A stretch of DNA of 64,000 bases from assembly GCA_008632985.1 (NCBI GenBank), contig QPGO01000032.1:555330-619329 (forward strand), in the 5' to 3' direction. Position 1 is the first letter of the stretch; each line of letters opens with the position of its first letter. Shown here one piece after another: positions 17,301 to 44,547 of the stretch. The position numbers were made by a program, and so were the translations under genes. The stretch comes from Psammoneis japonica (Eukaryota). The notes beneath the pieces were generated by a model, which did not search any database, was not told the DNA's origin, and saw nothing but the letters and a program-made list of their open reading frames with translations.

Positions 17301-17980
17301 AAGGGAGGCAAGCTGCCCTCTTGCCTCCAGCATTCCCCCAGCCACTTTTTGTCGGTGTGGGCCAGCCAGCTGTCTGCCCCAAATGAAGCAGCTGTTTTGT
17401 GCTGGGCAACCCTGCAACAGGAGCTGCTTTTCTGTGATGGACAGAGCAACAGCATCAGATGGTCTGTCCTTTGCTGAGAGAGACCGCAGCTTGAAAGCTG
17501 TCTTGCTGGCTGTTGCTGCCTGCTCTTTTTGCTGTCTCAAAACAAAAGCAAAGGCCCCACAAGGCCAACAAGGCCAACAAGAGCCAGCACTCTCCCCACT
17601 TGCACAGACCATGTGTGGCCAAACTGTTTTGGCAGCTGAGATGACTTTGTCAGCCGAGAAGGCTCTCTGACAATCAGAGAGTTGTGCCCCGGCTTGTCAG
17701 CCAAAGTGCAGGAGCTCGCCCCATGGCACAGCATGAGACTGGACAGAAGAAGTTGTCTTAAGTTGTTCATCATGCATCAAGAAGGAAGCACAAGGAGTGA
17801 ACAACAGCATGACAGGCTCCAGCCAAGCTGCCAGAGTCTGAAAGCATGTGCTTTTTATTGTTTGTTTTGTTCTGCAGTGCTGCGAACTCCAAACAGTTTT
17901 AGTGAGCGAGAGGCAAGAATGACGTGTGTGAAAGATCGCGTGTCTGTCCTGCCGTCAGAAACAGTGACTCATTGACATCG
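11400..17980. repeat. TpA- and CpG-erased relic repeat domain A (decayed transposon DNA, family not recognisable)
   Basis: Almost no TA or CG over ~6 kb, with strong TG/CA excess. ~160-bp-spaced direct repeats at 11803 and 11964. Normal composition returns near 17990. Confidence 0.75.
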
Positions 17981-18183
17981 AGGCGAGAAAGATACCTGTA
18001 GACTTAGTACCAGACGTTACAGGACACGCAAAACAACGTGGTTTTACCACATTGTGGTCGCTTTCTTCTTTCTTGTGGTGTCACTATTGCCGACGTTGTT
18101 GCTAATCTCGGTGTTTGTTGCCTTTGCTCTGTGTCTCATCCAAAAAAGAAGAGGCAACCCTGCCTGCATTTATGACTTTCAAC

Positions 18184-19479
18184 ATGGAGCGAGTACTTGC
18201 TCTTTCTCTCATATTAGCTACGCAATGTGCTGCCTTTATGAGCAACCCTGTAGCTTCAACACGCCATGCCATGTCAGTGATGGCTGAAGCTTCTGATAAT
18301 ACCAGTGAGAGCGATCGTCGTAACTTCATCGGCCAAGTGTTGGCTGCACCGGCTGTTGCTGCAGCAGTTCCGCTTCTCACCACGTCACAACCGGCACACG
18401 CCGAGGTCTACCTGGATCCAGCCATGTACGGCGATCAGGAAAACCGAAACTCGGCCGTCAACTCACTGAAGGAAGCGGTTCGCAGAGCCATTCTGGAAGA
18501 CCCCAATTTGGCTCCTGCCTTTTATCAACTGGCCATTCTCGATGGACTTTCCTACGATGTCAATACCAAGCAGTATGGACCCGACGGAAGAGTGGTTTCG
18601 GCTGTACTGTCGTCCAAGGACAGCAGTTCCTACATGCAAAAGTTGCAAGCCGCCTGTAAGGTCTTGATTGCGTCCACGATTAGTCTCAAAAAGCTAACTT
18701 CCATCACTGTCGCGGATGCGGTTGCACTTGGTGGAGCTGAAGCTATTGAATCCATTGGTGGTCCAGTGCTTTCGGTTCAGTTGGGCCGAATGGATGCTCC
18801 CAAAGGTTCGCCAGTGAGTAATCTGAATCTGAACGTTTTGTCGGGCGAAGCTCCAGGCTCTGAAGTTTCCCAGGCATTTAAAAGTGCCGGCTTGACAGAG
18901 CGGGAAATGACAGCCTTGCTCGGCGGTTTGTTGACGCTCAGCTTGGTGAAGACCAATATGAAACCGGGGGAATACAAAAAGACCCGTGGAAAGTACCGTG
19001 AACGAGGAAAGATTGGACGCATGAGTGAATTCAAGAAACTAACTGATGACGATATTGCGGAGATGGAAGAGTACGAAGAGTCGGAAGATAACGACTGGTA
19101 CATTGCCGAGTCGTTTGGGACAAGGGACGAAGCCTTTGGTGCCAAAGCGGCCGAGGGCATTTCAGAACAAAATTTCAACAAGTATCTCAAGCAAATGAGT
19201 GAACTTATTGCCAACAGCAAGAAAAAGAAGGCCTCTGACGGCGGTGCCAGTCTCTCTGACTTTGGATGGATTGGAGCGCTCTTGTTGAATCCGGATAATC
19301 CAACGACGCAGGCGTGGTTGACCAAGTATGGAGGATCATATTTGAACTACAACAAGGATCTTGCAGTTGCCTACAATGCCATTACACAGCTCGGGGCAGA
19401 GTATACAGGGGGCAAGTATGAGAGTCTACTCAAGAACAAGCCCAGAAAGACGTTGAACGATGACTTGGATTTGTTCTAG
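18184..19479 (+). CDS. Thylakoid-lumen ascorbate-peroxidase-like protein (TL29/APX4-like, heme peroxidase fold)
   Basis: Signal peptide ending CAA|F, Tat motif DRRNF and AHA cleavage site. ITVADAVALGGAEAIESIGGP..LGRMD and FKSAGLTEREMTALLG are peroxidase-fold motifs. Confidence 0.82.
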   Translation: MERVLALSLILATQCAAFMSNPVASTRHAMSVMAEASDNTSESDRRNFIGQVLAAPAVAAAVPLLTTSQPAHAEVYLDPAMYGDQENRNSAVNSLKEAVRRAILEDPNLAPAFYQLAILDGLSYDVNTKQYGPDGRVVSAVLSSKDSSSYMQKLQAACKVLIASTISLKKLTSITVADAVALGGAEAIESIGGPVLSVQLGRMDAPKGSPVSNLNLNVLSGEAPGSEVSQAFKSAGLTEREMTALLGGLLTLSLVKTNMKPGEYKKTRGKYRERGKIGRMSEFKKLTDDDIAEMEEYEESEDNDWYIAESFGTRDEAFGAKAAEGISEQNFNKYLKQMSELIANSKKKKASDGGASLSDFGWIGALLLNPDNPTTQAWLTKYGGSYLNYNKDLAVAYNAITQLGAEYTGGKYESLLKNKPRKTLNDDLDLF

Positions 19480-22616: not shown

Positions 22617-24069
22617 ATGAACGAAGACTCGGAAAGCCTACCCAGTGTCGAAAGCGTAGAGAGTGTGGAGGATCAGGATGAAAGGACTGCTGCTTCTCCT
22701 CCTCCCGAGACCCCTCAAGATAGGAAGCACGAATCGACCCATCGTGGCACTGACCTTATGCATCGACTCAAGGTTCTGTGGCGCCTTTTCGGTCAGGAAG
22801 CTGTAGCGGTTTCGATTGGGCTTTTGGAGCTTGTGTTCATCGCATTGAGTCTCCGTCAAGCCGTCAACACTATGCACGACTATGAAGAGGAATACGTTGC
22901 CGACCGTGTCATTCAATCGCGCTGCAGAGACTTCTGTCCAGACACTTTCGACTGCGATGAGTATCTTTCCAACTGCTGGGCTCACCTGTCCCAGTATTTT
23001 CCACGCCCCTTCTGTAACAGTACGTGGAGCCCCTCTGATTGTTACAGAGAGGTAGCCTCTTACTCGCCAGTTAGAGTCAATGCAACAATTTTTGTGGCGC
23101 TGTATAGCCTTAGGTTCTTTGCAGAATTCGTTGCCTTGGCTCAAGCATTTCTCCATGAGAAACATTGGTGCAACGCCCCTCTCTCTCGAGTGGCAGCCGG
23201 GAAGGTTGTTTGATTCTTTTTCGCTTTCCATGCTCATGTTCACGGTGGGTCTGGCAAGCATCATAAGCTCCGTCACAATTGCGGACGGTGGAGACAGTCG
23301 CGACCATCAGACAATGGAGGTCTTTACCGCCGTGTTGGGCGCCATGCTTGTTCTTATTGCCGCCGTGTTTGGCATTTGGGTTTTTGTAAAGAGAGATGAC
23401 CTGCAAACGGGTGGTCCGAGTTCAGTACCGTTCCTAGGCGCCGCCCGTACCTTCGCATTGTCTTGGGAGCTATGGAGTGCCATTATTGACATATCATACA
23501 TCCCGTTTGTCGCACAAAAATCAGATTCATCGTCCGCGGTGAATGTCATCTTGCTTCTATTGGAGTTATTGCGAAGTATCTGGGAGGTCAGTATGGAAGC
23601 CCGTGGGATGAAACTCTGCTATGCGTTCAAGCGTTTGTACGTTCCTGTTTCCGCTCGGGACAAATTACTCGCCCTCAACACGACGAGGCGGGAAGCAGTT
23701 AATGCGCACTTGACTTTGGATGGTGTTACTCTGGTCACCACTCGTCTCTGCTCGTCCCGAGAGCTGGTCCAAAGCGTGATGGACATTTGCACAACTTTAA
23801 CCTCAGGGCCCATATCGGGGGGTCATTGGTACCGCACACTTGGGAACAATGAACGGCCTTGTCGCTGGAAAGCATGGCTTGCCATTCAACCCGTAGCGGA
23901 CTCCGAGAAGGCTTGGTTTGATGGGGAACAAATTACATTAAACTTTCATCAGCTTTGTGGTGTCACGCTCTCTGCACCTCTCGATTCAAACGCGTGCTCC
24001 CAAGTGGAAGATTTTACCCGTGTTTCTGATACTGCTGGCAGGATTGTAGAAACTGTCGTGTGGCATTAA
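22617..24069 (+). pseudogene. Multi-pass membrane protein gene split by a frameshift near 23180 (pseudogene or sequence error)
   Basis: Overlapping hydrophobic ORFs 22617-23213 and 23080-24069. The frame switch lies around the ccccTCTCTCTC tract. Confidence 0.55.
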
Positions 24070-24597
24070 GTGTAGTGAAGTAATGACAAGTCATTTCCAG
24101 ATAGGATAAACTCTTGAAAAGGCTGGCATCAGGCCTCATGCATCAGCGTCTCTGTTGAGCATACAGTACCTCTTGATGTTTTTGCCCCTAATAGTATACA
24201 TGTTTCATACCCTTTCCAATCTGAAAGATCATCGGTGCGAAGAGAAATAGGTCTACACCGGTCGGTTGCTCTCTAGCAGAAGATCTGGCCATGGTAAATC
24301 TCGAGAAGCTTTGCTCAAAATTTCTTGTTCTGATGACCATCTTGATGCAAAACGTAGTGCCTTTCGTCGTAATAGCTCGGCATGGCGGTAGCAAACGGTG
24401 TTAGTCTTTCGTTTTGGTTGGGTCGAGAACTTTTTCGCCGTCGTTTGGGTGTACACACTTCGTTTCACCGAGAGCATCTCTTTCCAAAGGGTGCGCCAAT
24501 GGAAACACAGAGGCACTGGAGGAAAGCGACACCGAGGTACTCAAAGCGCTGTTCGAGTCGTGACCAGCAATTGTTGTCCCCTAGCTGTACCCAACCT

Positions 24598-24960
24598 TCA
24601 GACGCCATGTATTCGTAGATGAGTATACAACCCCAGCGTTAAATTGATTGATTCCGACTGCGCATTCAAAAAACCCGGAAAGCCTACCGCCAACACCGTA
24701 TCATCTCTTGATACCGAAAGAGACGCATCACGCATCCAGTCTATAAGTTGACCAATTTGAATCCACAACAACGAGCCAGGATCATACTCGTAAACTCGGA
24801 CTCCACCGGAGCTACCAACTTTGGGAACCATGCCCTTTTCTGAGCACAGATTCAATACCACGCAATTCCCGTCATCAGATGAGGACGCCACGTAGCCTAA
24901 TCCGTATCTGGCTCCTTGGCTAAGTATGTTTCCTCTACGCAGAATTCTTCCACTCACATA
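24598..24960 (-). pseudogene. FG-GAP repeat gene remnant
   Basis: GGVRVYEY..WIQIGQ..SLSVSRDDTVLAVGFPG resembles the repeats of 4027-6573. No complete ORF. Confidence 0.5.
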
Positions 24961-27189
24961 TCTGCACAAGCCCACGATCCGTGGTATTGACGTCACTCAA
25001 ATAAGCTCCAATAGCGACATGTCGCAGTGCTTTTTTGAGAGTTAGAGTTTCGTAGGAGAAAACGTTGGGGTGTTATTTGTCTGGGTATTGACTCTAGGCC
25101 AGCGACTCGAAGAACAAGCAGCATAAATACAATCAGTCTTGAAAGTAGTGTGTCCGGAACAATTATGTCGTGGTTGAGAACCCCGAGACCCGAGACTCCA
25201 CAAATGCTAAATCGACACCATGGTTGTGTCATAAGTTGCATCCTTGTGTAATACTATTGGGTTATTGACAATGTGAATCACAAGACATGAGCAACAACGG
25301 AATAATGCCAAAGGCTCAATAAGCTAGAGTACTTACCTTCTCCACATATCTCACCTCAGGAGCATGTAGACCGGAGTCCCACAACAGGTATATGTCTTAT
25401 GCAAACGTTTCCTTCGAGAGACCACTAAGAGTGCCGTAGACGATTCGCCAGTGAGCAGCGAATGCCGATAGAACGGTGCGGCGAATCGGTGACAGACAGG
25501 AAGAAGGCTCTTATTGTATTGTACCGTGAACTTGGAATGTTTGACTCGTGCAGCCTTCCGCGAGTGTTTTTGACGGCTACCGTGAAATGTGATTACAGCC
25601 TCGTCTGCCTCATATTGTCTACACTTTGCGTCTTTCTCTGATAATCATTGCTCAAAAAGGCGATTGTGTGTACCGCATGGCATGGCGAACGGTAGGTTGT
25701 GCGTCATGTTCATGTTTCATGTGATGATATTGCGTTGATGGCTGTTGATGGCGGCAGTTTTTTGCGTTTTGGAGGCCTACGCAACGCGTACGTAGGAATT
25801 AGTAATCACTTCGAACGTACCAACTTCCAACGACTGTTCTACATACGAAAATCTTGGTATTGACTCTGATAGAGTACACAAAAATGATAGTGATTGAGAA
25901 ATTTAGCAACGGTCACGACACACAAACAAAATCTCTCACTTTTTTCTTTCGCGCTCGTTTTTGACACAACTGCGTCGTCTCGCACGATGCTGTTGTTGTT
26001 CGCCAAGCCCGAAGCCGTGATCGTCGAGGACTTGTTTGGCATTCCACAACCAATTTTGCTTGATGGCGTGTTGTCTCAATCGGCGGCGCAGGTGTTGCCA
26101 GTTAAGTCCGGAGGTCGGAGCAAATCGAGTGCGTGTCTCCGCCATGTCACTCCTGTCTCCTGTCCGTCAGCTGTCCCGATTTTATCAACCAGTAAAGTCC
26201 CATCGACTGACCCTTCCACTCAGCCAGCTGATGCGACGACGAACCCTTTGACAGAGCCCTCGGCATTTCCCACTGCAATGCCAAGTGCAGCACACAGTGA
26301 CGTGCCATCAAAAGCACCATCAGCAGAGCCGAGCGACATTTGGAAGCACTTCGTGCTGCGACGATGAACGTGAACGATGCATCGTAAGATGCACAAGAAA
26401 AGAAAAAAAGATCAAACCAAAGATGCACTTCGATGGGATGCACCATTGCCAGGAGCCACTGGACCGATCCATTTCTTTTCTTGTCATTTTGCGACATCTG
26501 TTCTCGCAAGTTGTTTTCCGGCTGCACTTTTCCCACTCCATCCCCGTCACCCGTTGGCATGTTTCAAGTTCTCTGAAACACGCTTTGAACCTTTACAACA
26601 GAAGTAGAAAGACTAAAAGTGCCACACAGCAATCTTCATTCGCGTGTGAGTCATTCCGCACGCAGGTCAATGGACTGCGATGGCGGTCGCAGCGCTTGCG
26701 ATGTCGTTCCAAGCTTTTGTGCATCATTTCCGTTTTTGCACCACATTGCTCTCGTCCCTTCAGATGGGGTCCACGCTGGGGTGTTTGTTGTGGCATGCCC
26801 CAATTTGGGCTTGTCGTCCATGCCGCATGTGCTGGACTGTTTCGGCGTTTGTCACCTGCAGTGGTTTTCTCACAGATTCGTCGCATTCACTTGTTGTTTG
26901 TGAGTTGCAACAGAAGAATGAAAATTCTAAAGCACAGGTTTGTGGCTAGAATGCTCTCTGCCAGCAGAGAGAAACAAAAGTTTCGAAATTCGTGACTCCA
27001 CTTGTCTGACTGTGCCAAGCTCCGTTTGTCCTCTCTCTGAGGTGAAGAATCACATGGCTGGACACAATGTTGAATGCCTTCTTCAGCTGAACAAGTCCCC
27101 AACCGAAATTCTCGAGCTTGTCTTTGAAGCTGGCCTTGAGCGCATCGATTGATGCACGCATCCCAGGGTTGAGTGGAGGCTGTGAGACG

Positions 27190-27465
27190 TGACAGAAATT
27201 GAAGGCAAATGGCAAGAATTCAAACAACAACTCCTTGCTGCTGTCTAAATGGCAGATGAGTCTCCGCTCAGAGACCGTTGCAGGAGCCGAAAGACGTGTA
27301 AGTCGGCACAATTGGGCCACTGTTGTTGTTCTTGTGAGCCTTGTGGCTCGAAAGCAAACTGCGTCGCACGTGAACGCGCGGAGCTAAAGCACACAAAACT
27401 GTGCGCGGCAAACTAAACAGCGCGCGACATTTCGCGTGCACCCAAATCCTGTTCAAATCCTGTCA
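27190..27465 (-). repeat. 3' LTR (276 bp)
   Basis: tgacagaaattgaagg...caaatcctgtca, preceded by TSD agacg. Confidence 0.96.
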
Positions 27466-27560
27466 CTCCCCAGTTTGCTTGAGGAGCCACAGAAACAGAT
27501 TCAACTTCGGATGGAATGAAGTTCCAGAACATGAGGGGGCAGAGAAGGTCCCAGATTTGG

Positions 27561-28125
27561 GAAAGTCGCAGCCCAGATGGAACTCAATGGGTCCGGCACC
27601 CTTGAGCTTGAACTTGTGCTTTTCCGTGAGAGCATCGACGAAAGATTGAGGGTCCTTCATGGCAATGGCGAGGTCATCCACATAAACAGCAATGCATTCA
27701 CAGTGGTCGCCATTCCTGCGCATCCAAATGTCGGGTTCGGCGCGGCAGGGGAAGAAGCCTTCAGCTCGCAGGCAGTCGGCGAAGCGCTCGTGCCAGCGGA
27801 GACCGGAGCTGCGCAGTCCATGCAGGGCCTTGTGGATGACGAGGATGTGTCCTTCGAGTTTGCCAAATTCAGGTCCGGCCACAATGTAGAGCTTCTCCTT
27901 GGTGGTGGCTTCAAGGCAGGCATTGCCAATGTCGGTGGCCCATGTCTCCAACTCGTTGAGTTCGGCCAGGAAAATCATCAGCCGAAGGCCACGGAGGGAG
28001 ACTGCTCCGGAGTGGACACTGTCGATGGGTGCGTCCGTGAGGTGCCCATCGGCTACGAGTCGTGCCTTGTGGCAACCGTCGTGCTTCACGTCGTGCACCA
28101 GGTGCACTCGGATCTTCTTGTGTCC
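27561..28125 (-). repeat. Duplicated RT segment (copy of ~29342-29906)
   Basis: Second copy of KKIRV..KARLVADG..YVDD..FHLGCDF. Confidence 0.93.
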
Positions 28126-28126
28126 C

Positions 28127-28345
28127 TGACAGCAGATGAGTCTCCGCTCAGAGACCGTTGCAGGAGCCGAAAGACGTGCAAGTCGGTGCAATCGGGCTGC
28201 TGTTGTCATTCTTGTGAGCCTTGTGGCTCGAAAGCAAACTGCATCGCGCGCGAACGCGCGGAACTGAAGCACACAAAACTGTGCGCTGTGAACTGAACAG
28301 CGCGCGACATTTCGCGCGCACCCAAATCCTGTTCAAATCCTGTCA
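28127..28345 (-). repeat. Internal third LTR with a ~57-bp deletion
   Basis: tgaca|gcagatgagtctcc...tcctgtca, adjacent to the PPT. Confidence 0.93.
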
Positions 28346-28349
28346 CTCC

Positions 28350-30347
28350 CCAGTTTGCTTGAGGAGCCACAGAAATAGATTCGACTTCGGATGGAATGAA
28401 GTTCCAGAACATGAGGGGGCGGAGAAGGTCCCAGGTTTGGGAGCAACCCCAATGCTTGCTGAGAATGTCAGCAGGGTTGCGGGAGCCTTCGATGAAGTGG
28501 AGCTCAAGGTGACCAGAGGCAATTGCCTCACGCACACGGTGGAACGACAGTGCGGTGTGTCGCTTGTGTAACTTGGAGTGCGGGATGGTGGCACTGTCTA
28601 CAACCGACTTGTTGTCACCGAACATGCAACTGACATTGCGGATCGGGACGCCAAGGCAGTGCAGGGTGATGCGCAGGTCGATGATCTGCTCGACACAAGT
28701 CCTTGCGGCAACAAATTCAGACCCGTGGGTTGCAGTCTCCATGGTGGCTTGCTTCTTGGAGAACCAATCAGCCGGGAATTTGTTGAGGAAGTGGAGCATT
28801 CCCATGACAGAGCGTCCGGTGAGCATGCAATGGCACAAGTTTGCATCGACGCAGTGGGTGGCAGTGACGAACTTGCCAAGGGGCGGTGGAGCGTCCTTTG
28901 GGATCATCTCTTCTGCTTCGCCGCACACGGAATGCATCCATTCACAGGCCGGAGCAGGGAGATCCGAGTGGTCGGGCTCTTCCGTGTGAACACGGAGAGC
29001 GCCGTGTCGCATCTTGGAGAGGTGCCCACAGACGTGTTTGGCATGATCCAAGTGGCCTTGACGGGGCGCAGCTTGGAAGCTAGAGAGTGACATGACGGCC
29101 ATGGCAATGTCAACTCGACCAAGGGACACTGCCCATTGGAGTGAACCAACAAGAGACTGGAACTTGTGAATGCCATTGGGCCCCAGCAGTTTGGAAGTGT
29201 CCAGCTCGGGGTGGTCACCCTTCTCCAGAGGTGACAGGGCGTTGGTGGTGGGTTTCTCCCCAAACAGTCAGGTGCAGCTGTCGACCATGCGCTCGATGCA
29301 CTTGCACGGAGACAGGCACAAGGTGCCGTCAGGATCCCGGGAAAAGTCGCAGCCCAGATGGAACTCAATGGGTCCGGTGCCCTTGAGCTTGAACTTGTGC
29401 TTTTCCGTGAGAGTGTCGACAAAAGATTGAGGGTCCTTCACAGCAATGGCGAGGTCATCCACATAAATGGCAATGTGTTCACCGTGGTTGCCGTTCCTGC
29501 GCATCCAAATGTTGGGTTTGGCGCGGCAGGGGAAGAAGCCTTCAGCTCGCAGGCAGTCGGTGAAGTGTTTGTGCCAGCGGAGACTGGAGCTGCGCAGTCC
29601 ATGCAGGGCCTTGTGGATGACAAGGATGTGTCCTTCGAGTTTGCCAAATTCGGGTCTGGCCACAATGTAGAGCTTCTCCTTGGTGGTGGCTTCAAGGCAG
29701 GCATTGCCAATGTTGGTGGCCCATGTCTCCAACTCGTTGAGTTCGGCCAGGAAAATCATCAGCCGAAGGCCACGGAGGGAGACTGCTCCGGAGCAGACAC
29801 TGTCGATGGGTGCATCCGTGAGGTGCCCATCGGCTGCGAGTCGTGCCTTGTGGCGACCGTCGTGTTTCACATCGCACACCAGGTTCACTCGGATCTTCTT
29901 GTGTCCTGCAGGAGGAGTGGAAGACTCGAAGGGCCCGCAGTCATGGAAGACTTCGTATTCCTCGAGTTGGTCCATCTCGAGATTAGTTGCGTCTCCCCAT
30001 TTGCGGTTGCCGTTGTGTTCGTCTAGTGACATGGCGTGTTTGCAGTTCCGGGGAACTTCGTGTCCACACTTGCAGCGAGGTGCAGTGCGGAAGGAGCGAA
30101 GCTTGGCTTGGTTGGCCATGCGAAATGGCTTCTTCTGGTGCCTCGCGATGGTGCGGAACCGCTTCCAGCCATCAGTGTCGAGAAGTCCATTCTCTCGTGC
30201 ATAGATGGCGCAGGTGATGGGGTCGTCCTTGGCGATGATGGCAAGAGGCTCGGACGTGATCTCCCCACTTTCCCATTCAAGCATGATGTTGTAGCTTGAG
30301 CCTTTCCAGGTTGGGTCTTGAGGCTTCAGAGGTCCTTCGTGTGACAC
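28350..30347 (-). pseudogene. pol: Copia reverse transcriptase and RNase H (mutated)
   Basis: KARLAADG, KALHGLRSS, IYVDD, FSKKQAT.ETATHGSEFVAA, GDNKSV and NPADILSK. Confidence 0.95.
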
Positions 30348-30353
30348 GATGCG

Positions 30354-31802
30354 TCAAAATTTCCAAACAGCAGTGTCTTCGTCTTCTTGCTCAATGTGAT
30401 TCATGATGTCGTTGCAGGCAAGGACTTCCTTGTGTTCGTCGTTGTTGACAGAGCAGACAAACTTGGTGAGCTCGGGATTGCCGTTCACTTTCCATTCATG
30501 GTCTTCGACGGCCTTGACGATGCGAGCTCTGTGGCGTTGTCCGTCCTCTTGTGGCTGCATGAGGAAGGTGCGTCCGATGATGTCTTGCGGGTCGAAAACT
30601 GGCATCTTGGGTGTCCTGATCTCCCCATCAGGAGAATCGACGGGGTTGTCGTCATGGCGAGATTTGATGATGGGTTCAGGTGGCTCCCCATCAGGAGGAT
30701 CAAGACGCAGGTTTCGAACGGCAGGATCGGTGGCAGTGGATCGTACGTTGGACCGGTGGAGGATCTTCTGAGTCTCGTCAGAGAGAATCTTGAAGGTCAT
30801 CTGGTGGCCGACGTGCTCAGCAATGCCAACAAAGCATCCACGCAACTCACGGGATTCGGACAGCCAATCGGAGTCATCGAGGTGGAAGCACACGGGTTCC
30901 CACCAGTGAAAGCGAAGCAATGGGCTGATGTCCGGGGTGGAGCCAGTGAGAGTCTCGAGGGGCGTGCACCAGTGGAGACGTGGGGACGCTGTGTGGTTGA
31001 GCATGAAGCACACGTGCATGAGCGCCAGCAGCCATGTGTGGGCAGGCGAACCGAAACGATCCATGACAGTGTTCGCCATGCGCTTCACGGTCTGGTGTCG
31101 ACACTCGGCAAAGTTTTGGTGTTGCTGGTGAGGCTCACTTTGCCAGCTGGAGATGAAGAGGGCTCGTAGGATCCCGAGCACCTTGTTGCTGATCTCAACT
31201 TGAGCACGGTCGCCAATGAGTTTGGATGGGGCACCACGCTCACGGATCTGATCCTCGAGTGTGTTGACAAACTCTTTGTCCGTCTTGGTGCCGCAGACGT
31301 CAGTGACGGCAGACTCGGTGCCAACAAACAGTTGGGCGCTGGTGCAACCAGAGTCGATGGCCGGGGTGTCGGCATGAACGGTGTCAGTGGCGACAGGCTC
31401 GTTGCGGCGGTGCACATTAAGGGCGGGGTTGGGTGATTTGCAGGCCTTCCTAAGGTGTGTGCCAGCGGGCATGCGGGCGCACTGCGTGGTGCAGTCAAAA
31501 GTGCGACGGACCGCATCGGCAGGTGGGAAGCCAAAACAAGGCCGAAGAGACTCGAAGGGGGGGTCCTTGGGCTGCACAGTGCGCTCCGGGGGCGGAACGT
31601 TGTCGTCCTTAGGGTCAATCGCGTGTGGATGACACTCGTAGAACACGTCGTCGTTTGGAATGAGGTGATCATCGAGGGCGGACGCGTGATCGGCAGACAA
31701 GGAAGCGGACATGATGGTCTTGTTGACAACGACACGATGACGGCAGTTGCCGCATTCGTCAAATGGGTTGGCAGTGGGATCGTCCTGCAGGTCAGAGATC
31801 AC
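30354..31802 (-). pseudogene. pol: Copia integrase (mutated)
   Basis: VATDT..DRAQVEIS..SEPHQQHQNFAE DDE core and TPDISPLLRFHWWEPV. Ends at a TGA that probably derives from CGA. Confidence 0.92.
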
Positions 31803-33673
31803 GTCGCACCACTGGTCGCGACGACGGGACCACGCTGGGTCTCAATGATGGCGCCAGCAGTGACAACAGGGATGTCTGCCAATTGATGGTCGTCAATGCC
31901 CTGAACGTCGACTTGGTGAGAGGTGTGTGCAATGACGCAAACGTCGTCGCCAGCAATGCCGCCGTTGGCCCCACGATCGACCAGAGCACCAGCGCGTGTG
32001 GAGCGATGAGCAGAGGCAGAGCAAATGACATTGTGGCCACCAACGCGGCGGCAAGTGCGGCCGTTGAGTTCCATGTCATCGGCAGGAGCTGGCGGAGTAG
32101 AGGGAGCGGCGGATGGCCCCGGTCGACTGGCGTTGGGGGCTTGGTTAGGAGACAACAGACGTTGCAGATCACCGGGTGGCAGTGGCTTGCGCTTGGTGAG
32201 GTGCGCCAGGATGGGATTGTCCGAAGTGGCACCCACATTTGGAGCGGGGTCACCAGAGTCAGCAGGAGTCGTGTTGGACAAGTTGACATCACCATCACTC
32301 CCAAGGCGTTGGTCGTGAAGGTTGGCCGTAATGGACTCATGGCAGTTGCTGGCTCGCGGGTTGCGGGGAGGCGGACGAGAATGCTCAAGGATGATCGCCT
32401 TGGAGGAATGGGGCAACGAATCCCAAATCCGTTGGTGGTCGGGAGGGAGACGTTTCCATTGGTCACCGGCGAGGCTGGGACCACGGGTGCAGGCAGCATT
32501 GGCCTGAAGGGCGTCAATGTCGCTGTCAATGTCGCAGAACACATCGTCGGATGGTTCCTCGGAGCAGACGTCGTGTGCGTGTGTGGCACGTCGGGGAGCT
32601 CGAGGTGTCGTCTTGGGTTGAAACGTGCTGTCGCATTGAGCCGCCGCGGAGAGGAGCAAGCCACAGCATTGATCACATGTGAGGCTCTTGCCACTCTGCA
32701 TGCGATGCTGATCAGCTTGGTTCTTGACAGCACGGAGTTCCTCGACAGGGTGTGCGGCATTCTCGAGCATGACGCGCTTCTGTCCTTCAGAGAAGTGGTC
32801 ACTGGCCGGGATGAGTGCCTCGCACTTGTGCAACTGATCTTGCCAATGAAGGATGAACCCATGGGTCGGACCTTTCCAAGTGCCATCACCAAGACGTGCG
32901 GTGGCAAGGTGCGTGAGCAAGGTGGAGGACTCGACAGATGCGCAGGTGGAGGCGAGCGCACACTCAGACAAGGCGCGGCAGATGGTCTGGGCGTCAGAAG
33001 ACCCCACATTTTCGCGAATGAGAGCCTTGCCCTTGTCGGTGAGAAGGATGCATTCGAAGATGGCGAACACGTGCTTTTGCTGTTCAGCAAAGAGCAGTTT
33101 GTCTTCGGGGCTGGTCGGTTTGTACGATGAGTCTAGAGTGCACTCGACGTCTTGGGCATGGGCTTGTGCCACAAGTGAGGTGTGCCAAGTGTGCCACTGC
33201 TTGTCAGATTTGAGAGCCGTGAAAGCAGTGGGGTCACGCTTGATGCCTCGCTTGAAGTCTCGCACCGGGTCGCGTGCCTTGGTTGGGTTGGTGACATGCG
33301 GAGGTGCAAGGGGTGAGCTGCCGATGGACACAGAAGACATGCAGTCGGGGCTGAGGCGGCAGGCAAGGAACTCGTCATGCGTGAACAACGAGGAGTCATT
33401 GGCAACGTCAAGACCTTCGTGTGCTTTGACAATGCACAGACCAGTTGGAGCTGCCAACATGTTCTTATGACCGCGGGGCAAAGGGATCACATTAGTGCCG
33501 TTGTCGCACTCAAGCGAGTCGATTTGGGACGGTGTTAACGTGAACAGTTCTTGACACGAGTCCGTGCCGTCTTGGGTCAAAGCCAAACGAAGAGGGCTCC
33601 CAGCACCTTGGGCAAGCACGGTTCCAACAACGTGCTCGAAACCATCGGTTTGTTGCTGACGAGTGAGAACCAT
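31799..33673 (-). pseudogene. gag: Copia gag and aspartic protease (mutated)
   Basis: DFKRGIKRDP and LVDRGANGG (protease). Frameshift or deletion near 31805. Confidence 0.88.
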
Positions 33674-34612
33674 GGCAGACAAAAGTGGTGTCAGGACAAG
33701 CAATTCTTGTTGGGAAGCGAAGGCAGACTTGAAACTTGGGTGAGAATGGACTTGACTTGAAATGGACTTGACTTGAAATCTTGAACTACCTTGAAATCAG
33801 AAGTCGCCGGGCTGTGCCATCCCGTTCGTTGTCAAGTGCTAAACTTCCCATCCGGTCCGCAGAGTTGTGCCGGCACGTCCGAACCCGCAGCCAGCGGCGC
33901 TTTGGGTTGCTTGCGAGCGGAGCAGCGGGTTGCAAACCCCTGCAGGCAAGCTGACCAGAGGTGGACAAGACCCCCGAACCATTCTTGTTTTACATCGGTT
34001 GGATTTCCCGATCAGGCTGGCCAGTTGACGCAGGCGTCAGGCGCTGTGGACGAACGAACAAACGCGGGAAAACACCCTCGCCCCAATGCAGGCTGCAATC
34101 ACGGCTGCTTGCTCTCACAGTCGTCCTCGTGGATCTAGCAGAACTGCAGAGCACCAGCAGTCTGGGGTAGATCAGGCACAACAGACTCGGCGTGCTTGCA
34201 GAGTGGCAGCAAAGCCGCAGTCCAAAGAGTGGGTTCAAGTCCTTGGCCGTGAAGATGTGTGTGTGTGTGCATGTCTTCAGCGACGAAGATCCTTGAATGT
34301 GTGGGGTTCTTGACCGTCAACCATTGAATGGGTGTGTCAAGGGATGAGGATCAAGGATGGACTTGGACATGACCGTTGAATGCATGTCTTCAGCGACAAA
34401 AGGCAGTGTGATCAATCCAGACATCCAGCGGCAAGGAGACTTGACGGTGACGTTAACTTCCTGCCGATGCCCTGGCATTGAATGCGTGCAGACTTGCCGA
34501 TGTGCGTAGAACACACACGGAGGTCCACGCAGAATTGAAATGCTGTCGTCGGTAAATCAATGACGACGATGGCGGTTGCTCAATGGGTTGACAATGAGCA
34601 AGACTGTCAATC

Positions 34613-34888
34613 TGACAGAAATTGAAGGCAAATGGCAAGAATTCAAACAATGGCTCCTTGCTGCTGTCCAAATGGCAGATGAGTCTCCGCTCAGAGACCA
34701 TTGCAGGAGCCGAAAGACGTGCAAGTCGGCACAATCGGGCTGCTGTCATCATTCTTGTGAGCCTTGTGGCTCGAAAGCAAACTGCACAGCGCGCGAACGC
34801 GCGGAACTAAAGCACACAAAACTGTGCGCGGTGAACTAAACAGCACGCGACATTTCGCGCGCACCTGAATCCTGTTCAAATCCTGTCA
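34613..34888 (-). repeat. 5' LTR (276 bp)
   Basis: Matches 27190-27465 and is followed by TSD agacg. Confidence 0.96.
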
Positions 34889-36819
34889 AGACGAATCGAA
34901 TGTACGACCGCATTGGATGTTGGGATTTCTTCATTGACAACTACAATGGCCACGGACAATCCCTTGCGAGCGGTCTCTTGCTCCTTTCCGTTGCTCTTAA
35001 TGGAGGTCACTTTCCAACGTGCAGCCCTCCCAAATCTGGGGTGCACAATGCAGTGCCGACTTTGAGAACAGCTTCCGTAGCTTCACACCAAAAATGATTG
35101 GATGCTCGATCCACGAACGTGCCAGCTTCTTTCCAAAACTGCAGTTCAACATGCATGCCCCATTTCCTCTAAGAATGCTGCGTTCGGCCAGCTGTCATTG
35201 CTGCGAAATCCGTCCACCAGCGTGCAACGTTTCGCCTCCTCAAGTGAGCAGTCTCCATTCACCATCCTTTTCGCGACATTCACATGGATTGGACCAATGA
35301 TCTTGTCGTCAAGCGGGTCTGCAATGGCAGCGACTTGGCACCACGTTTTGAGGACTTGTGAATCTTGAGGAAATGTGTCTCCACTCCATCCGCGCTCGCT
35401 TCCTTCATTTTGTGCAATCTTTCCGCAAGTGTGTGCACAAAAGCGGAACGCTCTCTGAGATCCTCCCACAAAAGCCACTGTGCACCCCACTCTGCTCCGC
35501 CCTCGGCCACGAGACCATGCGGCGAAAATGCATTCACGACCGAGAATTCCACCCATCCTCGCTTTTTCACGAGTTCCGTCTCCACTTGACTAAACATGAA
35601 GTGATGTCCGGGCATGCCTCGTGTGTGGGAAGCTGCAAAAACTTGTCAATGGAGAGCAATCGAGCCAGGTTCGCCTGCGTTTCACTGGCACATCGCGTGT
35701 GAACCCTTCAAAGGCCTCCCACAAAACATTCTTGTCATCTGGTCACTTCATGGTCAGCTTTTGACACATCTTGAGGTCATTCTTCTCACATTTTTCCTTG
35801 CAATGATCCAAGGCAAATTCGAAAAGTTTGTGACAACAAGCTTTTTTTTGGAGCCAGAAAGAATTTCCGCATTGCCTCGAACCATGCACTCAGTGACTTG
35901 GGACCACATTGGAGAACCTGCGGGGAACAGTCTTTCCTCGAGAATTTTGAGTTTGCTGTCCACTTGTTGGCTGGCCGTCCTTGCAGAATTCATGAATGCT
36001 TGGTTTGATGTCGTGGAATTTCTCGCATTGGCAGTCAAACCAGATCTGTTGGCTTTTGCCGCTGGCACTGCAAAGTTTGTCAATCCTGGTGGCCAGCGTG
36101 CCCTGACCTCGGCCCGCATCCAAGAGGGCGCGGCATGCGGCATTGCTGTCCCCTTCGCCTCGACCAGAGAGCTTCTTCGAGTCAAAGTTCCAAGTCTCGC
36201 ACCAAGGCAAGGAGGTTGTCACAGGTCCATTTTTTCTTCTTTCCATCGTTGCTCTCATTGATTGATTGGACGTGCTGCTTGATCATCTCTTGCCGCTCAA
36301 GAGGACCAAAGTGCACGTCCAGCGAATCCTCGTCAAAGATTGACAGCACAAGCGAGCAGGCGGAAAATTCTTGTGCCAATCGGTCAATCGGGCTGTTTGT
36401 TGTTGTTTCTTGGCTGCCTGCTCCTGGCGGTGTTGCCTTTGCATGCGGAGCGAGTTTCGCCAGAAGTGCTCTCCAGCAAGGGATCTTGTTTCTTCTCGCA
36501 CCATCCATTCAAACAACTCTGTTTCAAGTCTTCAAAGCAACGATGGAACAAAATGAAGCAATAAAGAGCACTCTAGCTTACAGATTGTGGAGAAGTAAGT
36601 GAATGTTGAATGTGATCATCAGATCATCAGTTCAGTCAGTTCGATTTATTGTTGTTTGTTGGACTGGAGGGTCCGTCCCTCCATCAGGAGGTTCGCGCAT
36701 GCTGCTTTCACTATCGCGCGCAAAATGCGCGAGCGACGAGAGAGGAGAAATGGGGGGGGGAGAAAGAGACGGGCCATTTGTCACATTTTCTGCTGTTGAC
36801 AACAATCGATCATCGATCA

Positions 36820-38461
36820 TCATGGTTCATCATCATCATCATCACATTCCTTGTGGCTATCGTCACTTGTTTCAGGATGCAATTACCGTCACGATACCCT
36901 TGGAGGTGACGGCAGATTTAGCAATCCAATGTCAAGATGCCGTACCAAACGAATCCGCAAAATCCGTGAACGCTTTCCAGAGCTTATTGTGGCTGCCGCA
37001 GAACCGACTGCAAATCTGGAGAAGCGTCTAATAGTAGTGAGGATGATGATGAAGACAAAACAAGTAATGATAATATCGACAAGAATGAAAAGAAAACAAA
37101 AAACCCCAAGGAGAAAAATCAGGAAGTGTTGAAAACGCAGAAACGAGGTGTACCTCAGCGACACGAATACGCATCCATGGTGGACTATCTAGAGGCCAAG
37201 TATATCAGGGAGTCATGGTCAACGACGACAAGGACGATGGAGGCACTGTATCGTCGGTGGAAGGAAATAATTCAGTGTATTCAGTAGACTCCTTCATCAA
37301 TGATACAGAACTCAAACGCGACGTGGTGGGACAAGTGCTGTCTCAATCGATTCAGACAAAGTTGGAAGAAGAGAATGAAAGCGGCGACGAGTTTTTCGTC
37401 AATGTGGGTAATTTAGAGGTAAAAGACTCTCAACATCTCATGGATTACGATATAAACAAGGATGAAAGCATAAAGAAAAAGGCAAAGAAACCTGCAACGA
37501 AAAAGAAACGAGCCGCATCTACCGAATCGACAAAGGCATCCCCGAAAAAGAAGAAAGCAAAAACCACAAACAGTGACGGCGCTCCGCCCAAAGCCAAAAA
37601 GACGGAACAAAAGCCCGAAGCACCACCAAAGTCACCAAAGAAGCTCAAAGAGATTGAAGCCTCAAGCAAAAGGCAAAGGAGCTCGACGACGCCAAGAATG
37701 TCTTGCACGACCAAGTCGTCAATGCGATTCAAAACATGACGGACCAACAATTGCCACGCCAAAAGAAGACCGTCAAGCTCAGAATTCCAGTTCCAGAAGG
37801 CAAAAAGGGCGGCGACTCGATACTGTTTGCGTAAGTTTACATGTTGTTGTTCTGCGCGCCGCATGGATCTTTCGAGCGCATCGTCTCACACTACTTTTGC
37901 TCGTCACCCTTGTCTCTTATTGTAGCAACCCACACGTTCCCAACCAGCGATTGAAAGCAACCGTGCCTCAAAAGAGCGGACCGGGCGAAACCTTTGTGGT
38001 GAGCGTTCCCGCTCCGCCTCCACCAGAGGACACGGACAATAAGTTTGATCGTGACTTTCAAGACTTGTTGGACGACTATTCCCAAGCACACGATGCGTGG
38101 GCTCAAGCACAAGTACTCGTTCATGCCGCCGAGGGAACCGAAAAGGACTTTTCTCCACATCAGGAACGAATGAACAAGTTTGACAAGTTGCTCAAGGAAT
38201 TTCCGTCCAATCTCGTGGTGCCGGTGGATGCCGTGTATTTGCGAAAGGTGGTGCGTCGAGCTAGACAAATCGAAACAAGCGCAAGAACAAGACGACTGTT
38301 GTTGCCAAACCTGTAGAAAAAGCTACAGAAGATGCGGAGCAGGAAGAAGAACCAGAAGAAGAAGTCGTTCCCAAGACTTGAAAATGAATGTGCCGGGAAT
38401 GGGACGCAACTTTGACCAAGTGGAAATCAATCTAGAGGACTTCAACCTCAAGAATGCGTAA
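36820..38461 (+). CDS. HPC2/ubinuclein-like (HUN/HRD domain) histone chaperone subunit; frame broken by several single-base indels
   Basis: YASMVDYLEAKY..YSVDSFINDTEL..FFVNVGNLEV resembles the Hpc2-related domain. Lys-rich tract. Intron starting gtaag at 37831. Boundaries approximate. Confidence 0.6.
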
Positions 38462-38681: not shown

Positions 38682-39841
38682 CTATTTCTCCATGGAGAAC
38701 ACTTGCAACCACCCCTTTTCCGTTCCAGCCACGAGACGATTATGGTCGTAATTGGCGTGAATTGTCCACGGTGTATTGTGTCCCGGAGAATCATCGTCTT
38801 GTGCGCTAAATTTAAAGAGAGGCGCATACGATCCTTGACCCGACAAGGTCCATACATGAATGCGTCCATCGGTTCCACTCGTGACAAACCGCCGACTGTC
38901 CTCACATGGAATCAAATCTAAAATCCAACCCTCATGCGCCCTCGTGACGTGATGAATGAGTGGTGGCGACGTCAAGTTTTTGCGATTCAAATCCCAGATA
39001 CAAACCATACCTCTGTCACTCCCCGCAATCAAAAGTTGTCCATCCGGTGTAAAGGCAATTCCACGAACCGGACTGGAATGTCGTGCAAACTTGTGCCATC
39101 GTTTGCCTTCGCGATACAAATCAATGGTCCCATCCTGACGTCCGACGGCGAGCAATTGAGCAAACGCCGAGTGCCACACGAGACGAGTCGCAACCGCGTT
39201 CTTGTCGGAACCAAGTGTCTCGACAATTGTACCAGCCTCCAATGGTTTTTTGTTGGCCTTTTCGAGAGCAGGAGTTCCCAATCCGCTAGCCACCACGACG
39301 ACCGATCCATCCAAACAACCTACAGCCATGAGAATGTTTTGATTGTATCGAGTATTGGAGCCATTGTTTTTTGGAGAACACAGTGCCATGCTTGTACCAG
39401 TCGCGCTTTCCAAGTGAAATTCAACAACTGGCTTTTTCTTGAGTGACTCGGTTGTTGTCTGATTGATTCTTCTTCTGAAATGCTCCAAACTCGCACCTGC
39501 CTACCAAATCGATACTCGCACAAGCACATCTCCCGCCAAGTCATCATCTCCAACATAATTACGAATGACTGATACTTGTGTGCATCCCAAGGAAGCCTTA
39601 CTGTTGCTTGTAGGAACTGCATTGTTCGCTACCAATTCAAACGAGGAAACAGTTTCAACGCTGCCGCATCCAACGAGTCGTCGGTATTATCTTTTTCATG
39701 TACTCGAAAGCCATTGACAATTCCGTTTCCACTAGCTGTCCATATCATCCAACCATTCTTATACGTCATGGTTTGTACCTGCCAAATGGGAGCACCATGA
39801 TCATTGGCGGCTTGTCGGTGCAACGAACGGTAGCCGCTCAT
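38682..39841 (-). CDS. WD40-repeat protein (WDR61/SKI8-like); frame broken in the 5' part
   Basis: HSSPVRGIAFTPDGQLLIAGSDRGMVCIWD and AHEGWILD..FVTSGTDGRIHVW. N-terminal exon AANDHGAPIW. Confidence 0.75.
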
Positions 39842-42759: not shown

Positions 42760-44180
42760 CAAAAACATGTTGTGTTGAATCACCTCGCTTCCTCCTCACA
42801 GTCAAGGCGCGTGCGTGCAGCACTGTTGGCCCAAGCACAATGAGAATCACATCATTTGGGCACACATGTGTAGTGCGGGATTTTGGGATGTGCTGGACTC
42901 CCTCCGACCTCACCGCGGGGTTTCCACGAGGAAATCAAAAGAATTGGGCGTCAACAATGGTGAATTGAGCTTGTTTTTTTTTTTTTTTGCTCTTAACCTT
43001 CATTGTTTCTGGAGACCATTGCAGTCACAAAAACTCTGTCTCATCCTGACTTGCAAGCTGCTGCAATCTTGTCCAATCACAGAGACACCCACGCACACTC
43101 TGGGAGGGTTGATCTTGTGTGCCATGGTGCACTGACACCCACTGACCATCAGCAGGGTGGACAGTGCAAAATCAAGGCAGGAGTTGTTGCAAGTCACCGA
43201 GAGCATGACAGCTGTTCTTTTCCATGCAGGCCAGCACAAAAATTTGCTGCAAATGTTGAGAACAGCTTTCCAGGTTCTGCGTGGAGACAAGCATCCAAAA
43301 AAATCTGCAAAAACAGTGCTCAATGTGGTGGTGCCAAATGCAGCGATGGGGGCACTGCATCTGGCCAGAAATTGGCTGATCAAGCAAAGATCAAATCTTC
43401 TTAGGGGCAAAAAAACAAAAACTAAAACAAAAAAAGCCAGTGGTCAGTGAGGGCAAGTGGCAATCACCAAAAGAAAGAGATGATGGCAAGCCAACACGAG
43501 GTCCCTTGCCATTGGAAAAAGAAGCAGAGTGTGGCCACTCACAAAAAACAAAAAAAAGCCAAGCACCATGCTCTCAAAGCCCACCCATTAGCAAAGCAAA
43601 AGCAGCTGCTCTGTGGCTGCAAGTGTGAGTTTGGCACTGCTCAGCAGCTCAAGCTCCAACGAGCACGGCATTGGGCAACTGGAAGGACAAAAAATTGCCA
43701 AAAAAGTTGAGAAAGAGTGAGCAGCAACAGTGCACAGTTGGCAACAGAGGGGCAAGCAGATTTTGGATCCCACAGCCATGCTCAACCCCTGCAGCATTTG
43801 GTCTGATCTGGGCCTGGTGGGACACCACCTCTCAGCTGGCCCGGCTGGAGAAAGCTGGTGGCCTTTTTGTTTCTCACAACAAACAGCTCAGTGCCACATC
43901 AGCCCACAACATGCAAGTGGGCTCTGGGCAGCAAAAATCTCTTCTTTGGCTGCAGCAAGCAAGCATTTGACCTGCCGCCATTTGCAACAGACTTGCGACC
44001 CATGCAAAGGGGAGAGGACGAGGCTCTGGCCATCGACAGGCCTGGCTTTGGTTGGAGAGGTGCTGGTGTGTTGTGCACACATTCGAAGAGCAGCGCAGTC
44101 AGTGCACATCAATGAGAAGTGGCCACAAATGAGAACCAACGCACAAACGAGAACTTTGGGAGATGAGCGAATGCTCGCAA
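42760..44180. repeat. TpA/CpG-erased relic domain C
   Basis: Near absence of TA and CG between two normal genes. Confidence 0.7.
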
Positions 44181-44547
44181 CGTGTGAAGACTAGAGACAA
44201 CCCAGAAAACAGGTGGCAGCACGATGAAGAGTTAAGAATCAGTGAGGCAAAGATCTGTCCATTGTACATAAAAGTTCTATGAGTTTTACGAGCCACAACT
44301 TCAACTGAAGATTGCCCACGATCTTTTCCAGGATGTTCCGGACTCGCCGAATTCGCGGAGTATCACTTTCGCGGCATCTGATTCGCGGAACGACTCAAGT
44401 TGGGACTGCCACCGTCACTTTTCAGTCGATTCACTCGTGTTCTTGCGAACACTCATGATCACTTCACTTCTTGTGAAACACATCGTCACGCCAAAAAATT
44501 CTGAAGAACCCCATTTCTCCCAAACGATCAAGACTCTCAGTCAAAAG

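Follow-up and report, generated by a model that had tools for sequence, protein, structure and literature searches.

So far a single preprint, on the single organism Bigelowiella natans, documents hypermutation in which A:T>G:C transitions are confined to the dinucleotide TpA (Mettrop et al., bioRxiv 10.64898/2026.01.13.699255, cited here and below for its main text). Of 302 nuclear point mutations found across mutation-accumulation lines, giant-virus and virophage insertions accounted for 231. All but one of the mutations in these viral insertions were A>G or T>C, and the GC-biased ones all occurred at TpA; the rate, ~6e-7, was ~1000 times the background and was seen in some lines only. TpA-poor coding sequences of B. 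natans are enriched in reverse-transcriptase and DDE domains, and TpA-poor clusters there are rich in CpA and TpG. The authors propose an ADAT2-like DNA adenine deaminase, and the main text contains no mention of diatoms or of CpG. In this paper we analyze a window of 64,000 nucleotides of Psammoneis japonica (contig QPGO01000032.1, positions 555,330 to 619,329; coordinates below are those of the window), which carries at 27190-34888 a copia retrotransposon bounded by long terminal repeats (LTRs). We regard it as probable that this element is a dead diatom copia copy that has undergone TpA-specific A:T>G:C hypermutation after its integration, at the level of DNA, as in B. natans.

A sequence-only reading of this DNA had noticed the pattern, knew of no described system with such a signature, and called for a literature check. 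We have run that check, with most subscription journals outside its coverage: the B. natans preprint was the only source found for a TpA signature, and nothing comparable was found for diatoms. Since the preprint describes exactly this signature, the statement that no such system had been described is overturned. The SPLASH paper mentions hypermutation only for immunoglobulins (PMC9258296). As for enzymes, the amphioxus tRNA adenosine deaminase BjADAT2 deaminates both A and C in DNA, in the contexts GAA and TCG, according to the accessible text of its description (PMC10354150).

The element contains 42 TA dinucleotides, an observed-to-expected ratio (o/e) of 0.11, together with 513 CG, an o/e of 0.85; the corresponding ratios for CA, TG and TC are 1.52, 1.39 and 1.21, and the GC content of 0.564 is above that of the flanks. 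By comparison, undepleted 1-kb bins of the window have a TA o/e of ~0.45-0.75 and a CG o/e of ~1. At the undepleted density of TA (1351 in 37,023 bp), ~281 would be expected in the 7,699 bp of the element. The dinucleotide counts thus bear out the initial observation that this copia element has lost TA and kept CG.

On sequence criteria we identify 27190-34888 as a Ty1/copia LTR retrotransposon of the diatom copia clade, lying on the minus strand, because it has matches to RVT_2, LTRs, a 5-bp AGACG target-site duplication and homologous polyproteins. Its parts are as follows, with ORF denoting an open reading frame, RT reverse transcriptase, aa amino acids and Tyr tyrosine.

34613-34888, minus strand: 5' LTR, 276 nt with TG...CA ends, 90.9% identical to 27190-27465
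31799-33796, minus strand: gag-like ORF with 1 Tyr in its 665 aa from stop to stop and with tblastn matches to related polyproteins
30354-31841, minus strand: protease/integrase part of pol, 495 aa, 1 Tyr, aligning with related polyproteins
29268-30353, minus strand: reverse transcriptase (RVT_2; PF07727, E=1.9e-22), 5 Tyr including the YVDD motif
28206-29267, minus strand: RNase H part of pol, 353 aa, 0 Tyr, homologues at 58-68% identity
28132-28442, minus strand: internal LTR copy, comprising an LTR (28132-28345) that lacks 62 nt at one end and the polypurine-side spacer (28346-28442)
27559-28125, minus strand: duplicated RT fragment, a copy of 29340-29906 at 93.65% over 567 nt (RVT_2, E=1.1e-23)
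27190-27465, minus strand: 3' LTR, with a purine-rich tract before it on the element strand

Counted from stop to stop, the gag frame encodes one Tyr, the integrase frame one, the RT frame five and the RNase H frame none. The composition agrees with the earlier counts for gag, integrase and RNase H; the lengths then given for the first two, 634 and 482 aa, presumably belong to the ATG-started versions of the 665- and 495-aa frames. The four frames contain 3.1-4.1% cysteine (Cys) and 4.7-6.5% histidine (His). In homologues (120 among the matches listed), the median Tyr content is 3.8% (2.9-5.0), with 0.95% Cys and 3.5% His. All of the motifs in which the sequence-only reading saw Tyr replaced (NACLEA, KALHGL, VCSG/VHSG, ATHGSEF, CLGVPI, SCMFGDN and KHWGC) are found in the element, and the family consensus carries Tyr at the quoted sites: GNAYLEA, KALYGLR, ATYGSEF, RYLGVPI, SYMFGDN, HWGYSQ.

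We aligned the element with 32 homologues, namely those of P0001-P0040 with more than 1600 aa, the shorter ones being dropped. At least 80% of these homologues share a Tyr at each of 31 columns, of which the element retains Tyr in 5 and carries Cys in 16, His in 7, Phe in 2 and Gly in 1; for other conserved residue types it keeps 78-100% of the columns. When the 87 differences at conserved columns are each assigned to the cheapest one-step path, 29 are changes at TpA (19 TpA>TpG and 10 TpA>CpA), 22 are CpG decay (18 CpG>CpA and 4 CpG>TpG), 4 are other transitions, 16 are transversions and 16 are multi-step. A>G or T>C changes outside TpA are rare at these columns, 4 versus 29 at TpA, and this is the excess over other contexts that had been proposed as a check. 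Polarity is also visible in a pair of 106-nt paralogues within the window: the copy at 46578-46683, in TA-normal DNA, retains TA and CG at positions where the copy at 51807-51912, in a depleted block, has CA or TG. The replacement of Tyr by Cys and His, the polarity of the paralogues, the 29 versus 4 specificity and the LTR doublets described below together uphold the proposal that TpA changes directionally to TpG or CpA, whichever DNA strand is hit, and mainly so in repeat DNA. On the sense strand of the element there are 610 CA versus 497 TG and the GC skew is -0.154 (-0.175 to 0.128 in relatives); the Tyr codons lean opposite to these totals, with 16 going to TG and 7 to CA.

Reverse transcription produces LTRs that are identical at the time of integration. 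The outer LTRs of this element now differ by 19 events: 6 doublets with CA in one LTR and TG in the other, 2 CA/TA, 7 CG/(CA or TG), and 4 of other kinds. The CpG decay per LTR copy is ~0.19 (15 CG shared, 7 half-decayed), which predicts ~0.4 doublets; therefore most of the six began as TA and were hit separately in each LTR. Since the outer LTRs of a single insertion, flanked by a target-site duplication, differ at former TA, the change took place after integration, in chromosomal DNA. The three-way alignment of the LTRs has the same pattern as the outer pair, and the duplicated RT fragment differs from its twin (567 nt) by 7 CA/TG doublets, 16 CG/(CA or TG), 1 TA/TG and 5 others. Outside pyrimidine-purine steps the outer LTRs have diverged by ~1.4% (4 in 276 nt), though nearly all of their TA is lost. 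By these measures the TpA change outpaced ordinary substitution by far, and CpG decay several-fold.

Other copies of the family were sampled through contigs of four public runs of one sample, possibly the source of the window itself, mapped onto 24000-38000; the largest run placed 14,783 contigs there. The summed contig depth of the copia family is 33,000-113,000, compared with 57-92 in single-copy flanks. The variable places comprise 694 transitions (A>G 165, T>C 165, C>T 193, G>A 171) and 171 transversions; 40 of 883 places were viewed individually, and the family-wide statistics are partial. Among the places viewed, linked TG>CA pairs at 28026/7 and 28969/70 account for about half of the depth, and other copies carry TA at 27880 (CA in the window) in 0.92 of the depth and at 28031 (TG in the window) in 0.54. 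Many variable places are CpG decays private to the window copy. The TA alleles and the split TG/CA outcomes imply that the family is not natively TA-free and that its copies differ in outcome.

The same conclusion can be drawn from more distant relatives. As a family baseline we used 80 related copia loci from metagenomes, found with the family alignment as query, in which the TA o/e is 0.33-1.07 (median 0.68) and the median GC content is 0.476. A family consensus that itself lacks TA had been named as a reason to abandon the idea of hypermutation, and what we find, in these relatives and in the TA-bearing copies, is the reverse. A metagenome scan with the mutated element protein as query recovered no relative, and the protein collection contains no copies of the same family, the best identity being 65-68%. 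Among 120 shorter homologues, two proteins from other copia lineages (P0345 and P0249, mutually 60% identical) have Tyr contents of 0-0.24%: P0345 has 0% Tyr, 3.8% Cys and 7.7% His, and P0249 has 0.24% Tyr. At the conserved Tyr columns where they have a residue, Cys or His stands in 12 of 14 for P0345 and 9 of 13 for P0249, in a pattern unlike that of the window element, and at such columns the two proteins alternate between Cys and His. In clusters of at least 90% identity around these two proteins, exchanges between Cys and His are among the commonest differences, with pairwise counts of 29 in cluster 1 and 5 in cluster 2.

The loss of TA is not confined to the element. The window contains the following depleted regions, to which no strand applies.

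~26000 to ~36600-36800: TA-poor, CG-retaining domain (class I), from 200-bp bins, with 63 TA in 10.8 kb
11963-17760: class II block, without TA and CG, CA/TG o/e ~2
42994-44192: short class II block, from dinucleotide bins
45724-46381: short TA-free block, a 657-bp TA-free gap to the left of a TA-bearing island, CG o/e 0.57-0.75 in the covering 1-kb bins
46739-53976: class II block, of which 58114-58362 and 59843-60453 are diverged paralogues
60242-61524: class II block, from dinucleotide bins

Together, the copia domain, the class II blocks and 45724-46381 make up ~42% of the window, and in 200-bp bins the depleted domains are sharp-edged. The class I domain consists of an older repeat (~25.9-27.19 and 34.89-~35.2 kb), the copia element, and a single-copy flank (35.2-36.6 kb). 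The older repeat, which forms the left flank and ~0.3 kb of the right, has a depth in the thousands, and paralogue contigs connect 27142 or 27158 straight to 34889. From 35208 on, contig depth is 68-92; the flank 35208-36608 has a single-copy depth of 68-77 and one TA in 1,200 bp. This depletion of single-copy DNA implies that the TpA process is regional, or that it leaks, rather than being strictly confined to repeats. The earlier suggestion that the process is aimed at repeats is therefore probably too narrow: some of the affected sequences are repeats, among them the copia family, the older repeat at the insertion site and the 46.7-54 kb block with its paralogues in the window, but unique-looking DNA, ~1.4 kb of it single-copy by contig depth, is depleted as well. 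The longest ORF of this flank, 35605-36258, has no homologue among 1.84 billion protein representatives. Over 35784-36180 there are two contigs, of depths 33 and 36, with 2 and 25 other letters respectively (plus gaps in the latter), which are probably two haplotypes.

Depleted blocks outside the copia domain have a TA o/e of 0.01-0.09. In the class II blocks (11963-17760, 42994-44192, 46739-53976 and 60242-61524) the CG o/e is 0.05-0.3 and that of CA and TG is ~2; that is, their pyrimidine-purine steps are almost all CA or TG, and they have no recognisable domains. The Pfam scan covered 102 of the 188 extracted ORFs of at least 70 aa, and in these 102, from the class II blocks and flanks, there was no credible match, all being below the curated cut-offs; for 11963-17760 there was no Pfam match in 34 ORFs and, within the window, no paralogue beyond one 90-nt match at the block edge. 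The island at 46381-46739 comprises 360 bp of normal TA and CG inside depleted DNA and contains the paralogue 46578-46683; it may be a younger insertion or a segment that escaped.

Survival of TA depends upon its neighbours. The depleted blocks, among which 45724-46381 is included in the mask for the TA and CG context counts, retain 104 TA in 26,977 bp, versus 1,351 in 37,023 bp elsewhere. Writing R for purine and Y for pyrimidine, TA survives at 0.013 of the background density in RTAY, at 0.09 in RTAR/YTAY and at 0.325 in YTAR (chi-square 88.9, p=5e-20). Counted as trinucleotides on both strands, retention is 11% for TAC, 5% for TAT, 27% for TAA and 23% for TAG, and Tyr codons that follow a pyrimidine went 12:2 toward TGY. 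A rule by which only TAY is edited was rejected, the doublets being equal in YTAY, RTAR and RTAY.

TA and CG are lost at different paces. From class I to class II, retention of TA in mixed contexts falls from 0.164 to 0.033, and CG falls from an o/e of 0.85 (in the element) to a density ratio of 0.16. Expressed as a dose, class II has received ~1.9 times more of the TA loss and ~10 times more of the CG loss. Because the two losses are not proportional, we read them as a fast TpA process and a slower CpG clock, the latter most likely being the deamination of 5-methylcytosine. The CpG that survive in class II blocks have a context of their own, with a retention of 0.56 for GCGC and of 0.075-0.11 for TCGA, TCGG, TCGT and TCGC; this could reflect duplex stability, or a preference for a 5' T as at TpA.

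The structure of the element is as follows. Gene order is gag, protease/integrase, RT and RNase H, collinear by tblastn with polyproteins of 1845-1933 aa and with integrase upstream of RT; tblastn with five copia polyproteins matched the window at 27547-33673 and nowhere else in it. The gag ORF matches the N-terminal ~630 aa of four of the five polyproteins at 35-41% identity, and the fifth, P0059, is shorter and has no match to it. In Pfam the gag ORF had no match and the protease/integrase ORF none at E<=0.01. The LTR termini are TGACAG...CTGTCA, and the AGACG duplication occupies 27185-27189 and 34889-34893. The element is composite, with an internal truncated LTR and a second partial RT: the internal copy 28132-28442 is 92.9% identical to 27252-27562 and 93.9% to 34675-34888, and with 10 events in 214 nt separating it from the 5' LTR, it stands nearer to that LTR than to the 3' one. 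In 27466-28442 the truncated LTR copy is followed by the duplicated RT fragment, which is joined directly to the polypurine-side spacer. The RNase H frame also matches P0293 and P0318, which are internally duplicated, at 46% and 53% identity; these two lie on ENA contigs of 2.0 Mb and 519 kb, have a tandem duplication of ~120-190 aa in the RNase H region, and by eye look normal in Tyr content. The gag frame differs from the pol frame, the two overlapping at 31799-31841, and in-frame TGA codons close both the integrase ORF (30354-30356) and the RT ORF (29268-29270). With two in-frame TGA, a break between the gag and pol frames, 26 of 31 conserved Tyr lost and an internal duplication, the copy is dead.

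The long ORFs around the element are ordinary host genes. For the ABC1-kinase ORF at 1504-3729 (minus strand), the best matches that carry a name come from Fragilaria crotonensis (72%), Attheya, Seminavis and further diatoms, which identifies the host, as judged from its proteins, as a diatom. Tyr content is normal in the host genes of the window. The ordinary host genes at 1504-3729, 3916-6573, 18106-19479, 54325-57963 and 38682-39500 have a TA o/e of 0.36-0.52 with CG of ~1, the wider range for genes being 0.36-0.69 for TA; possibly, low TA across the genome represents a weak background activity of the TpA process. The ORF at 9334-10929 (minus strand) is intact, encodes 531 aa with HYR domains, and contains internal tandem repeats of ~87 aa, of which 10053-10338 and 10314-10599 are 75% identical. 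Its TA o/e is 0.19 and its Tyr content 1.3%, compared with a TA o/e of 0.36-0.69 in other host genes; it may be a repeat-bearing host gene that was touched by the TpA process, or it may simply have its own composition.

The direction of the change, its dinucleotide specificity, its timing after integration, its context and its regional extent can all be read from the DNA itself. The mechanism that we propose would operate as follows. Each TpA step would be hit on either strand and become CA or TG, with RTAY favored and YTAR spared, throughout a chromatin-sized domain that takes in the element, the older repeat at its insertion site and ~1.4 kb of neighboring DNA that is single-copy by contig depth. 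The element would be disabled without the use of stop codons, the conversion of TAY to TGY or CAY deleting its Tyr codons, and other signals that contain TA would presumably be removed as well. A slower removal of CpG would follow, until in old blocks no pyrimidine-purine step other than CA or TG is left. We infer, further, an enzyme targeted to silenced or foreign DNA as a form of genome defence; that this candidate enzyme deaminates adenine in DNA, yielding hypoxanthine, which pairs with C, is the step that we put forward most tentatively. A more general proposal, which we find possible although we would not wager on it, is that diatoms possess an editor of A/T pairs in double-stranded DNA that acts at RTAY/TpA in silenced chromatin and spreads in cis, that is homologous to the Bigelowiella activity, and that belongs to an immunity common to stramenopiles, alveolates and Rhizaria, or older, which would have shaped TpA content genome-wide as a reverse of repeat-induced point mutation (RIP).

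The alternative that survives best, though we think it unlikely, is a chemistry of thymine rather than of adenine: a modified T at TpA (5-hydroxymethyluracil, 5-formyluracil or a J-like base, made by an enzyme of the TET/JBP type) that mispairs with G. Because TpA is self-complementary, a T>C change of this kind is indistinguishable from A>G on the opposite strand. CA and TG both occur, the sequence does not reveal whether the A or the T of a pair was hit, and the sequence data are equally compatible with either route; RTAY, moreover, is palindromic, as expected of a reader of double-stranded DNA. 5-Formyluracil is mutagenic toward A:T>G:C, and the 5-hydroxymethyluracil of dinoflagellates sits at TpA and TpC. 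A modification directed at both TpA and TpC might, however, be expected to deplete TpC as well, and no such loss is seen (TC o/e 1.21). Nothing in the present data points to such bases in diatoms, and the authors of the B. natans study favor adenine deamination (10.64898/2026.01.13.699255).

Very improbable, in our estimation, is editing of the element's RNA at UA by an ADAR- or ADAT-like enzyme before integration, with the A>G changes fixed by reverse transcription. Retroelement RNA would be a natural target, and a U 5' of the edited A is preferred by ADARs and in fungal editing, as far as the published sections consulted describe it (PMC11156358; 10.64898/2026.01.13.699255). Yet LTRs that were identical at integration differ by CA/TG doublets, sense-strand T>C is common (7 Tyr>His, 10 TpA>CpA), and flanks that are not part of the element, including DNA of single-copy depth, are depleted too; the data from LTRs and flanks largely refute this route. 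In addition, a pyrimidine is favored on the 3' side here, whereas fungal editing is often at UAG or UAA (PMC11156358).

We attach equally little credence to an artefact of sequencing or assembly, in which modified bases of transposable elements are miscalled, for instance by a long-read base-caller. Neither the assembly nor the runs have a sequencing platform on record, and there are small indel differences between contigs and window. But the same local context gives CA in one copy and TG in another, which a deterministic miscall would not do, and k-mer contigs of a public run reproduce both the element (3,358 at >=99%) and the TA-free flank 35784-36180 (2 other letters). The host genes in the window have normal Tyr, and the protein signature recurs in two other lineages, from other public assemblies.

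The poorest candidate, which we consider scarcely credible, is that the family is natively written without TA, through composition or through selection such as avoidance of a TA-reading nuclease, with Cys and His present in active copies: the host genes of the window are TA-poor too (o/e 0.36-0.69), so that some genome-wide pressure exists, but this copy is dead, the lost 26 of 31 conserved Tyr include motifs of catalytic domains, the same site is CA in one copy and TG in another with TA in further copies, and relatives have a TA o/e of 0.33-1.07. Biased gene conversion and ultraviolet photoproducts at TA were set aside by reasoning, for neither predicts TpA-restricted transitions in domains of transposable elements.

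Several points weigh against TpA-specific hypermutation of DNA as we have set it out, or against parts of it. CA/TG doublets can in principle arise from CpG as well, and the classification of the 87 changes puts TpA and CpG ahead of other causes whenever a single step suffices. Between-copy doublets are even across YTAY (5), RTAR (5) and RTAY (5), with 1 in YTAR, and do not reveal a strand rule behind the context effect. The evidence from reads consists of contigs of one sample, maybe the window's source, with no platform on record. The single-copy flank could descend from foreign DNA that is old and unique, and would then be no sign of spreading, and the composite structure of the element, with an internal LTR nearer to the 5' LTR, means that its history is not simple. 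Finally, the sole eukaryotic ADAT2 shown to edit DNA prefers GAA, by the account in the accessible text, and this weakens the analogy with ADAT2 (PMC10354150).

A saturated footprint in a diatom would place the TpA process in a second, and ecologically dominant, lineage. New here are the diatom lineage itself, the saturation, the sequence context, how far the loss extends regionally and how it relates to CpG decay. The protein signature is matched in public data by two more copia lineages. With roughly thousand-fold contig depth, LTR pairs that serve as clocks, the RTAY context and apparent spreading, the diatom case offers material for dissecting the process. There are practical consequences as well. 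Hypermutated copies lose their Pfam matches (gag and integrase here), which affects the annotation of transposable elements; TA-free DNA has long spurious ORFs, which affects gene prediction; and the dating of insertions by LTR divergence is distorted. A natural editor of A:T>G:C in double-stranded DNA would also be of interest to base-editing research.

It remains to compare the locus with known systems. Fungal RIP, in the parts of the literature on which we draw, likewise produces dinucleotide-specific transitions in repeats, kills transposons, leaks into unique DNA and leaves skewed blocks (PMC7296669). Its chemistry is the opposite: RIP converts CpA/TpG to TpA and lowers GC, whereas here TpA becomes CpA/TpG and GC rises; and RIP creates stop codons, whereas the process here removes TAA and TAG. 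In place of the TpA excess and AT-rich relics of RIP, the element has a TA o/e of 0.11 and a GC content of 0.564, above its flanks. Among deaminases, APOBEC enzymes cause G>A on the plus strand before integration, and ADAR acts on RNA. The changes described here are instead A:T>G:C, found on both strands, later than integration and present in the flanks too; editing before integration does not account for LTRs that differ at former TA, or for the effect on both strands and flanks. What the APOBEC3/ADAR systems share with our locus, according to the text consulted, is restriction of retroelements and clustered transitions in integrated copies, achieved there by a deaminase (PMC4866542). Methyl-CpG decay, with CpG>TpG/CpA, is under way in the element (22 of 87 changes) and nearly complete in the class II blocks, but it cannot remove TpA, and its clock differs from that of TpA loss. 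BjADAT2 belongs to the TadA-family type that was proposed for B. natans, but its published contexts are GAA and TCG, not TpA (PMC10354150).

The closest counterpart is B. natans, as described in the main text of the preprint (10.64898/2026.01.13.699255). The hosts differ, B. natans being a rhizarian chlorarachniophyte and ours a diatom, and hence a stramenopile, as do the targets, integrated viral DNA there and an LTR retrotransposon family here. The process was measured in mutation-accumulation lines there, whereas here it is deduced from its footprint, and depletion is near saturation here (o/e 0.11, with 0.01-0.09 in older blocks) versus a rho of 0.45 in the nucleocytoplasmic large DNA virus region of B. 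natans. The strong preference for RTAY over YTAR and the association with CpG loss are found here only, there being none in the abstract, Results or Discussion of the preprint. In its essentials, however, the process is alike in the two organisms. The changes are almost only A>G or T>C, and lie only at TpA, with TpG or CpA as the outcome depending upon the strand; they strike integrated, foreign or silenced DNA alone, at rates that exceed the background by orders of magnitude; and they are independent of copy number, the viral region of B. natans being single-copy and our flank having single-copy depth. In the diatom, the loss of TA consists almost only of A:T>G:C transitions, with CpG decay as a second spectrum alongside. 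Both outcomes of a change restricted to TpA are seen in the 16 Tyr>Cys, the 7 Tyr>His and the doublets between copies, and a localised, high rate is seen in the sharp-edged domains and the LTR pair, with host genes at a TA o/e of 0.36-0.69. To judge from this footprint, the TpA-only hypermutation of B. natans and the process that has acted upon the diatom element are one phenomenon.

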